Part shown: piece by piece, positions 5,905-6,226 of the stretch | Layout: the number at the start of each line of letters is the position of its first letter | Position numbering within the stretch: position 1 is the stretch's first letter | Virus record (IMG/VR): IMGVR_UViG_2534682139_000012 | DNA length: 28,428 nucleotides | DNA from: a virus | Taxonomy: Duplodnaviria > Heunggongvirae > Uroviricota > Caudoviricetes | Reading direction: 5' to 3' (one strand) | The notes under the pieces: generated by a model | The model's database searches: none | What the model saw: only the letters and a program-made list of their open reading frames with translations | What the model was told of the DNA's origin: nothing | Program-made: the position numbers and the translations under genes

Positions 5905-5994
5905 GAAACCAGAACATGCACACACAAAAAAACCGCTTGCCATGCCGCAATCAGTCAGGTTACATTTCCGCTGCACCTCATAAAACGGGTGCCG

Positions 5995-6190
5995 GGATTC
6001 TCAACCCGATACAGAGCAAAGCGCATAACCGCGCCAGCGGTTTTTTTGTGCGTACTGTATTGCCACGTCTTTTTCGCGTCAGAATTATGGCGGGGCGTAC
6101 GGGGCCGACTTCGGTCGGGCCGGATTCTTTGCTCTCCGGTGTTGAGAACCCTGTACGTCTCGCCACCCCGAGATTCTCAACTCTGGATGG
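5995..6190 (+). other. Structured noncoding region (candidate cis-regulatory RNA or sRNA) with nested long-range inverted repeats and a UUCG-tetraloop hairpin
   Basis: TTCTCAAC (5999-6006) is complementary to GTTGAGAA (6141-6148) and GAGCAAAG (6014-6021) to CTTTGCTC (6127-6134); hairpin GGCCGAC-TTCG-GTCGGGCC at 6103-6121; ORFs here overlap on both strands and look non-coding. Confidence 0.3.
6027..6047 (+). terminator. Candidate rho-independent terminator (AACCGC-GCCA-GCGGTT followed by a T-run)
   Basis: 6-bp GC-rich stem, 4-nt loop and seven T residues read directly; about 120 nt downstream of the 5605..5904 ORF. Confidence 0.45.
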
Positions 6191-6226
6191 TGAGCTATTT
6201 CTATCACCGAGCAAAGAGGCCACACC

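Follow-up and report, generated by a model that had tools for sequence, protein, structure and literature searches.

We analysed a 28,428-nucleotide stretch of viral DNA (Caudoviricetes; IMG/VR record IMGVR_UViG_2534682139_000012), referred to below as the window, which is a P88-like P2-family prophage. Within its early operon, an island of about 320 bp (positions 5905-6226) encodes an IsrK-like leader RNA followed by a C4-family antisense RNA, and ends at the ribosome-binding site (RBS) of a gene homologous to epsilon, the helper derepression gene of satellite P4. The island is very probably an RNA-based (secondary) immunity/anti-immunity module of the type of P1 c4, P4 CI, N15 CA and Gifsy-1 IsrK, here carried by a P88-like (Xuanwuvirus, P2-family) prophage. 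It is an ordinary, well-preserved representative of its class, with the testable features of both RNA families in place, and it leaves the known picture of how C4-type systems function unchanged. What is new is the presence of the known isrK-C4 module in a P2-family (Xuanwuvirus-like) prophage. The name 'IsrK-C4 immunity system' is already in the literature for P4 and related phages (Barquist et al.), and one GenBank record of a Stx phage annotates isrK and C4 RNAs side by side; our literature search found no description of an isrK-C4 module in P88-like phages.

Two RNA families in tandem upstream of an epsilon-like gene

An Rfam covariance-model scan of the window matched isrK (RF01394) at 5973-6047 with 62.8 bits, against a gathering score of 50, and C4 antisense RNA (RF01695) at 6083-6170 with 78.5 bits, against a gathering score of 45 (E-values 2.1e-11 and 4.9e-14, respectively). 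Both matches are full length (model positions 1-77 of 77 and 1-87 of 87), and a 35-nucleotide spacer separates the two RNAs. A permissive scan added only c4-a1b1 (RF03163), the P1-type leader, with 15.9 bits at 5960-6012, below its gathering score of 46.7; membership of the leader in that family was rejected on this score, and it is assigned to the isrK type. Folding against shuffled sequences gave z-scores of -4.9 for 6083-6170 (0 of 200 shuffles as good), -3.1 for 5973-6047 (1 of 200) and -4.4 for 5973-6240 (0 of 200). The C4 segment alone has a minimum free energy (MFE) of -47.6 kcal/mol, and its MFE structure is the Rfam consensus fold, a long closing stem around two hairpins. Comparison of 16 phages revealed compensatory changes in 15 of 27 C4 pairs, with almost none broken, and comparison of 15 phages revealed them in 6 of 16 isrK consensus pairs. 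The original prediction, made from the letters alone, was of a structured noncoding regulatory RNA that it could not assign to a known family. The matches, z-scores and stem covariation, obtained by the Rfam search and the folding and covariation analysis that it had proposed, bear out its first part and replace the second with two known families in tandem.

The gene that follows, at 6227-6439, encodes a 70-aa protein that matches the Pfam family Derepression (PF25738) with 31.6 bits (gathering score 27) and is 30% identical to P4 epsilon (BLASTP, E 3e-9), itself the founding member of PF25738 (170 bits). Within 5973-6439 the order is thus isrK RNA, C4-family RNA and derepression gene, each directly following the last, and the epsilon-type gene and a replication gene follow the RNA pair in the same orientation, as in the P4-type operon, although the replication protein belongs to a family different from that of P4 alpha. 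The features of the module, all on the + strand, are as follows.

5920..5940, +, left edge of the conserved module, containing the A7 tract 5926-5932
5933-5940, +, CCGCTTGC, within the upstream repeat arm 5920-5940 and facing 6033-6040
5937..5966, +, putative sigma-70-type promoter (-35 TTGCCA at 5937-5942, 18-nucleotide spacer, -10 TACATT at 5961-5966; 9/12 in the promoter scan)
5973..6047, +, IsrK / P4-SeqA-like leader RNA (Rfam RF01394, fold)
5973-5992, +, leader hairpin 1 (predicted fold)
5993-6008, +, leader hairpin 2, with loop AUUCUCAA carrying a1 (5997-6005; predicted fold)
6013-6021, +, decoy site b1, single-stranded (predicted fold)
6027-6047, +, intrinsic terminator AACCGC-GCCA-GCGGTT plus T7, stem-loop 6027-6042 and U-run to 6047 (terminator scan)
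6083..6170, +, C4 / P4-CI-type antisense RNA (Rfam RF01695, fold, covariation)
6088-6104 with 6149-6165, +, C4 closing stem, 17 bp (predicted fold)
6105-6118, +, UUCG hairpin of C4 (predicted fold)
6119-6140, +, second C4 hairpin, whose 10-nucleotide loop is seed b' (6125-6134; exact seed 6127-6135; predicted fold)
6141-6148, +, seed a', 8-nucleotide single-stranded junction (predicted fold)
6172..6181, +, target a2, GATTCTCAAC, in the loop of a small GAG/CUC hairpin and complementary to a' (motif match, fold)
6209..6219, +, target b2, GAGCAAAGA (6209-6217), complementary to b' and overlapping the Shine-Dalgarno sequence AAGAGG (6214-6219)
6227..6439, +, regulated gene, 70-aa homologue of P4 epsilon (Pfam PF25738, BLASTP)

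Antisense seeds and their targets

Besides the UUCG tetraloop and the 3' tail, the two seeds are the only C4 bases with a probability of being unpaired above 0.8. Each seed faces one complementary copy in the leader and one downstream of C4: TTCTCAAC occurs at 5998 and 6174, with its complement GTTGAGAA at 6141, and (A)GAGCAAAG occurs at 6013/6014 and 6209, with its complement CTTTGCTC(T) at 6127. The leader and target copies form direct repeats, 5992-6005 with 6168-6181 (14 nucleotides, 93%) and 6011-6021 with 6206-6216 (11 nucleotides, 91%). Target a2 starts two nucleotides 3' of C4, and b2 overlaps a Shine-Dalgarno sequence that stands 7 nucleotides 5' of the ATG at 6227. The predicted duplex between b' and b2 has an energy of -14.3 kcal/mol, compared with a mean of -5.8 kcal/mol for shuffled targets, of which 2 in 1000 were as good; for a' with a2, 13 of 1000 shuffled targets were as good. 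In the MFE structure of 5973-6240, the b'/a' region pairs with b2/a2 in cis.

All of the motifs listed in the original prediction are present, including the UUCG hairpin GGCCGAC-TTCG-GTCGGGCC at 6103-6121 (as RNA, GGCCGAC-UUCG-GUCGGGCC), and the direct-orientation copies that it had noticed near the next RBS (6169-6220) turn out to be a2 and b2, the operative targets. Its nested complementary pairs are also there, although they enclose 105 and 135 nucleotides rather than about 120. Its reading of them as nested long-range inverted repeats needs correction, however: they are not mainly one large intramolecular fold, but antisense seeds a'/b' facing decoy copies a1/b1.

The C4 segment of the window shares with the annotated P1 c4 the conserved 5' context AAUUAU/GG and the 3' end GCC-ACC. 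Alignment to the annotated P1 c4 places the mature RNA probably at 6089-6167, and by analogy it would be excised by RNase P and act as a repressor in trans.

Seeds and targets covary on a conserved backbone

Sequence identity of the region is 86-88% with P88-like phages (Xuanwuvirus, Peduoviridae) and about 70% with many phages of the lambdoid, Stx and N15 types. Rfam found isrK followed by C4 in each of these relatives that was fetched, and the tandem lies directly 5' of epsilon or antirepressor genes in all of the P88-like phages and in the others, namely in P88, PhiR44_2, Shae_phiSM, N15, P4, ST64B, mEp460, Klebsiella NAR688, several Stx phages and Gifsy-1; P1 instead has c4-a1b1 and C4. 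The distance between isrK and C4 varies by lineage (24, 25, 35, 67 or 107 nucleotides). Variation among 66 unique relatives clusters in the seed and target windows and in part of the spacer just 5' of C4 (6056-6085), while the promoter, stems and terminator are less variable than the coding sequence of epsilon. A nearly invariant backbone is common to the window, P88, PhiR44_2 and Shae_phiSM, which carry four different sets of a and b seeds, each altered coherently at a1/a'/a2 and at b1/b'/b2.

A contig search with the epsilon-like protein gave just three loci, and IMG/VR was therefore scanned with a 23-nucleotide DNA pattern of the C4 hairpin, from which 124 modules were parsed. These contained 27 seed combinations, built from 9 a' types and 20 b' types, and the three copies vary jointly in nearly all combinations. 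The exact complement between a seed and its cognate site has a median length of 7 nucleotides (a) and 9 nucleotides (b), compared with 4 and 5 nucleotides for non-cognate sites. Cognate duplex energies average -33 and -35 kcal/mol and non-cognate energies -22 and -24 kcal/mol, a gap of about 11 kcal/mol, and the module's own a2/b2 ranks first as target in 12 of 16 rows of this comparison and second or third in the remainder. We propose that the seeds serve as an immunity 'barcode' by which phages that are nearly identical elsewhere differ. With at least 27 seed combinations on a near-identical backbone, the family is a clean natural case of programmable antisense specificity (heteroimmunity).

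The a' seeds also recur across unrelated lineages, in both polarities. In the same polarity, GUUGAGAA occurs in the window and in N15. In opposite polarity, the P88 seed GUGGAAA has its reverse complement, UUUCCAC, in ST64B, mEp460 and P4-like modules, and the PA2 seed GUGAGAA has its own, UUCUCAC, in P4. Because a' seeds are reverse-complementary between lineages, the C4 RNAs of co-resident elements might pair with each other.

Many E. coli chromosomes, that of strain 2011C-4251 for example, contain the module in identical form. A match to the module was found in 1354 of 5426 complete E. coli genomes, about a quarter, and is at least 99% identical in 103 of these. In RefSeq the RNA stretch is blank and the epsilon-like gene is labelled 'hypothetical', and in other records the RNA is translated as an 'Ash family' protein or a 'transcriptional regulator'.

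Promoter and leader

The promoter-like site at 5937-5966 ends 7 nucleotides 5' of the start of the isrK model, which leads us to predict a transcription start at about 5973. Its sequence is identical across the P88-like relatives, and P4, N15, Stx phages and ST64B carry promoter-like hexamers at an equal distance from the isrK model start. From its position just 5' of the -35 hexamer (-47 to -41), the A7 tract at 5926-5932 appears to resemble a proximal UP element. The original prediction placed the island inside the early operon; the position is right, but since the module has a promoter-like site of its own, positionally conserved in relatives, it is more than a passive stretch of that operon. 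A second promoter-like site, at 6060-6088, was considered and rejected. Its -35 hexamer varies between relatives (TCGCCA in P88 and Shae). The would-be -10, AATTAT, is a 5' flank that C4 retains in every lineage, and a start set by it would fall inside the C4 stem.

The terminator-like hairpin with a U-run that had been noted at 6027-6047 was found again both in the motif check and in the terminator scan, and is an intrinsic terminator, albeit one with a short stem of 6 bp. Its hairpin and U7 tail would be compatible with binding of Hfq.

A model for the module and alternative explanations

Taken together, these features suggest the following model. Transcription would initiate at about 5973 from the promoter at 5937-5966, and many transcripts would end at the terminator 6027-6047 to give an IsrK/SeqA-like RNA of about 75 nucleotides bearing the decoys a1 and b1. 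Transcripts that read through would contain the C4 RNA (6083-6170), probably cut by RNase P and trimmed at the 3' end to about 6089-6167. Seeds b', in the loop, and a', in the junction, would then pair with b2 (6209-6217) and a2 (6172-6181) on the mRNA. Because b2 overlaps the Shine-Dalgarno sequence, this pairing is proposed to keep the epsilon-like gene untranslated. By analogy with P1 and P4, the untranslated, C-rich RNA would be ended prematurely by Rho, so that orf129 and gene A, further downstream, would be silenced for transcripts from the 5937-5966 promoter. The coding sequence of the epsilon-like gene is indeed C-rich and G-poor (C 0.30-0.34, G 0.21-0.22). The leader with a1/b1 would compete for the C4 seeds, and the ratio of short leader to C4 would set the level of derepression.

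Several points weigh against this model. Action in trans, processing by RNase P and polarity through Rho are carried over from P1, P4 and N15, and the promoter is a mere 9/12 consensus match. Transcripts from the early promoter must somehow pass the terminator and C4 if the essential gene A is to be expressed. The epsilon-like proteins of the window and P88 are 91% identical even though the main repressors of the two phages are unrelated, which argues against a simple role as antirepressor of the phage's own repressor; the biological target of the protein is something that we infer rather than observe. Finally, the sign of the net regulation is uncertain, because the published logic for Gifsy-1 has short IsrK activating an mRNA that represses itself, rather than simple repression by C4. 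In Gifsy-1, some isrK transcripts extend past the terminator. This long RNA is not translated, and short IsrK, acting in trans, turns on translation of the antirepressor gene that follows (anrP; Hershko-Shalev et al. 2016, PMC4825925).

It is possible, if less likely than repression by C4, that the window module is a positive switch of this type, in which the C4 segment would sequester a2/b2 and the RBS in cis, a short IsrK-like RNA would activate in trans by binding C4, and C4 would be mainly a cis-acting leader element. The orf45/STnc1160 region of Gifsy-1 is a C4-family RNA, and the cis pairing of b'/a' with b2/a2 in the MFE structure of 5973-6240 is compatible with a silent long isoform as in Gifsy-1. 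However, summaries in the literature on the other systems describe C4 RNA as needed for full repression of ant in P1, and the P4 CI RNA as an antisense termination factor that is processed from the leader and pairs with seqA and seqC to cause premature termination. The stand-alone C4 fold, moreover, is very stable and strongly covarying, as expected of an excised RNA. The two views do not conflict, and each may describe one of two states of a single circuit. More doubtful is a role in defence or cross-talk, in which the IsrK and C4 RNAs would be directed at the homologous modules of P4-like satellites or competing phages, to silence or titrate them, and the epsilon-like protein would derepress other P2-type prophages. 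A proposal that IsrK-C4 systems of helper-type prophages might protect against satellites has been made (Barquist et al.); phages whose repressors are unrelated nevertheless have a conserved epsilon-like protein, the combinatorial diversity of seeds would be expected under conflict between elements, and some a' seeds are shared (window and N15) or complementary (P88 and the ST64B/P4-like modules) between lineages. Against it, the ranking of cognate targets indicates that self-targeting is the primary constraint, and no satellite with the window's seed pair was present among the sampled IMG/VR modules. A plain intrinsic terminator or attenuator that insulates early from replication genes, with incidental repeats, is hardly tenable: a canonical terminator does stand in mid-operon, but the full-length C4 match, the stem covariation and the three-way covariation of the seeds would go unexplained.

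The remaining alternative, that the region encodes a protein and its RNA-like features are secondary, is very unlikely. It concerns a 205-aa open reading frame at 5916-6533, of the sort labelled 'Ash family protein' or 'transcriptional regulator', which calls for a qualification of the original statement that the island holds no convincing frame. Of 55 unique relatives, 50 keep this frame open through the RNA region. It begins 12 nucleotides after the upstream stop and ends in an ATGA that overlaps the start of orf129 in 78 of 84 loci. Its continuation over epsilon, in the +1 frame, is open in 51 of 51 distinct genes, which would be unlikely under E. coli codon usage (P = 0.003-0.07). There are also a weak match to Pfam Phage_ASH and matches to PHROG 'transcriptional regulator' families, frames of this type are annotated as coding sequences (CDS) in NC_049391 and PV340564, and orf45 of Gifsy-1, which overlaps the C4-like RNA, has been reported to be translated (PMC4825925). 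The signature of a coding region is nevertheless missing, so that the earlier statement holds in substance, and a conserved coding frame, the finding by which the original prediction proposed that it could be refuted, is not what this frame proves to be. In the RNA region, the minor-allele sums for the three codon positions of the frame are 144/153/108, with no third-position excess, compared with 410/428/706 for the epsilon open reading frame, in which the third position is the most variable. The ATG at 5916 lies 5' of the module's own promoter and is absent in 23 of 55 unique relatives, P88 included. Amino-acid identity is 0.49 in the alternative frame, compared with 0.61 in the epsilon frame and 0.69 at the nucleotide level, and once the gene's own codons are taken into account, an open frame over epsilon is not an unlikely outcome (P = 0.05-0.63 in synonymous shuffles). 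The variable positions change as RNA seed-target triplets, and the isrK-C4 spacers of the lineages do not differ by multiples of 3. The Phage_ASH match (PF10554) scores 19.3 bits, below the gathering score of 26, and RefSeq PGAP makes no call for the frame. After tests of frame openness, conservation of the start codon, variation by codon position, identity in the alternative frame and synonymous shuffling, we therefore reject the 205-aa frame as a conserved protein, and conclude that it is a by-product of GC-rich conserved RNA. The +1 frame over 6227-6533 could be a translational-coupling frame or an effect of composition, and a non-conserved 'conduit' frame through the module and epsilon to the ATGA of orf129 might, by analogy with Gifsy-1 orf45, couple translation.

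PF10554 and several PHROG 'transcriptional regulator/repressor' families also match conceptual translations of isrK/C4 DNA from P4, ST64B, Stx2a_1447, N15 and P13374. Such translations include the old 'cI protein' CDS of P4, N-terminal over-extensions of Rha-type antirepressors and gene 32 of N15. The matched regions are 5916-6533 in the window, 8168-8584 in P4 (locus L013), 1147-2304 in ST64B (L005), 1146-2297 in Stx2a_1447 (L010) and 1600-1890 in L003. A survey of P4 satellites used PF10554 as its marker for epsilon (PMC8628076); as the real P4 epsilon belongs to PF25738, that survey probably detected the RNA locus and not epsilon.

A lineage-specific antiterminator-like repeat

The sole unexplained extra of the module is an antiterminator-like repeat at its left edge. 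Positions 5920-5940 (ACACACAAAAAAACCGCUUGC) are complementary at 19 of 21 positions to the 3' arm and U-tract of the terminator (6033-6053), a match reached by 0 of 500 shuffles. This 21-nucleotide inverted repeat is limited to the P88-like lineage, in which both arms are invariant in 66 unique relatives and therefore offer no covariation test; it is absent from N15, P4 and Stx phages, and the ST64B/mEp460 group has only a weak match of 13/21. In RNAs that read in from upstream (5916-6053 or 5870-6053), the MFE structure forms the long-range helix 5920-5940/6033-6053 and not the terminator. Because the element lies 5' of the module's own start site, it would be present only in transcripts reading in from the early promoter.

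This folding suggests, speculatively, that the P88-like module may have gained a discriminator that depends on the start site, whereby read-in (lytic) transcripts would antiterminate through C4, epsilon, orf129 and the essential gene A, while internal-promoter (lysogenic) transcripts would terminate; we consider it unlikely, yet worth stating. To our knowledge, P2-family phages have no N-like antiterminator for the early operon. If real, the repeat would for that reason explain how an immunity terminator can stand 5' of the replication gene.

Comparison with known systems

The closest parallel in gene order is P4, whose genome according to Rfam has isrK and then C4 (the seqA leader and the CI RNA) just 5' of epsilon. 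As in the window, promoter-like hexamers lie at the same distance from the isrK start, the seeds are complementary to one upstream and one downstream copy, and the first conserved downstream gene is an epsilon homologue, with the replication gene further along the unit. The differences are considerable. P4 is a satellite, whereas the element in the window is a complete phage of the P2 family that brings a protein repressor of its own, Cox and late genes. The isrK-C4 spacer is 107 nucleotides in P4 and 35 in the window; b2 lies directly on the epsilon-like RBS in the window, while the first open reading frame after seqC in P4 is a different small one (MATTLTPSHP...); and the replication gene encodes the rolling-circle endonuclease gpA rather than the alpha primase. 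Identity between the epsilon proteins is just 30%, and orf129 of the window is unrelated to orf151; orf129 had been considered as an orf151 relative and was rejected, as there is no similarity between them. A helper-type phage of the P2 family and its classical parasite P4 have the RNA immunity cassette and the epsilon-type gene in common, which bears on the origin of the satellite's control region.

The immI locus of P1/P7 (c4-icd-ant) likewise contains a C4-family RNA (68.8 bits in P1, 78.5 in the window), and the annotated order of P1 is a1, b1, c4, a2, b2, with b2 beside the RBS of the first open reading frame. Spacing is also comparable: b1 and C4 are about 67 nucleotides apart in both, and a2 begins 2-4 nucleotides past C4. 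P1 differs in its c4-a1b1 leader (RF03163), in a promoter that overlaps a C1 operator and in its targets, icd/ant rather than an epsilon-like gene. The Gifsy-1 locus isrK-orf45/STnc1160-anrP also resembles the window in having isrK, a C4-family RNA and then a derepression-type gene, with a leader complementary to the downstream RNA (PMC4825925); IsrK and STnc1160 are both highly expressed in lysogens. There, however, the target is a Rha/AnrP-type antirepressor translationally coupled to a 45-codon frame, the locus lies beside antQ in a lambdoid prophage, and the published logic is the activation described above. In N15 (gene 32 - gp31 - antirepressor), isrK and C4 lie upstream of the antirepressor operon and the a' seed is identical to that of the window, whereas the b seed differs, the targets are gp31 and an Ant-type antirepressor, and the host is a linear plasmid prophage. 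Gene 32 of N15, annotated as a 'transcriptional repressor', overlaps the C4 RNA.

In ST64B (L005), Stx2a_1447 (L010) and mEp460 (L011) the module lies between cII and the replication gene of the rightward early operon, parallel to its place before gpA in the window, and is hidden in an over-long 'antirepressor' CDS annotation. Phage P13374 (L016) has a full-length Rfam match to sRNA-Xcc1 at 2523-2606 (79.6 bits), downstream of its antirepressor gene.

Downstream genes and prophage context

Relative to its P88-like relatives, the epsilon-like gene of the window stops 6 codons early (CAG to TAG at 6437), giving 70 rather than 76 aa (6227-6439, compared with 5282-5512 in L001). A promoter scan found no promoter-like site between 6090 and 7000; orf129 and gpA (6530..9756) belong to the same transcription unit and are likely gated by polarity, a co-regulation suggested by this arrangement. 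Other genes of the prophage to which we refer are as follows.

6530-6919, +, orf129, function unknown (PHROG phrog_3237)
to 9756, +, replication endonuclease gpA (Pfam Phage_GPA, 438 bits)
2682-3161, -, HTH repressor of the prophage

The stretch between the epsilon-like gene and orf129 (6457-6512) is nearly invariant, even in Shae_phiSM, in which the flanking coding sequence has diverged. A hairpin at 6468-6499 was rejected as a structured RNA, having no U-run, a fold z-score of just -1.6 and no Rfam match.

The gene order of the prophage is an integrase truncated by an IS3-family element; the HTH repressor; Arc-like, Cox-like, DUF4761, DUF4754, MarR-like and Ead-like early genes; the RNA module; the 70-aa open reading frame; orf129; gpA; and ParM/StbB. 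The Ead-like gene, whose stop codon ends at 5904, is the left neighbour of the module. The left end of the window holds an IS3-family transposase open reading frame, with the ALIL frameshift pseudoknot at 1-72 (59.9 bits in Rfam); this frame abuts and overlaps that of the phage integrase (1-888 and 770-1633). The integrase frame retains the N-terminal domain and just a portion of the catalytic domain, and the prophage may for this reason be unable to excise. Directly 3' of gpA, this integrated prophage carries ParM and StbB-like plasmid partition genes (9833-11108). A plasmid-like lifestyle is shared by the classical C4-type systems, since the prophages of P1 and N15 are plasmids and P4, too, is able to propagate as one.

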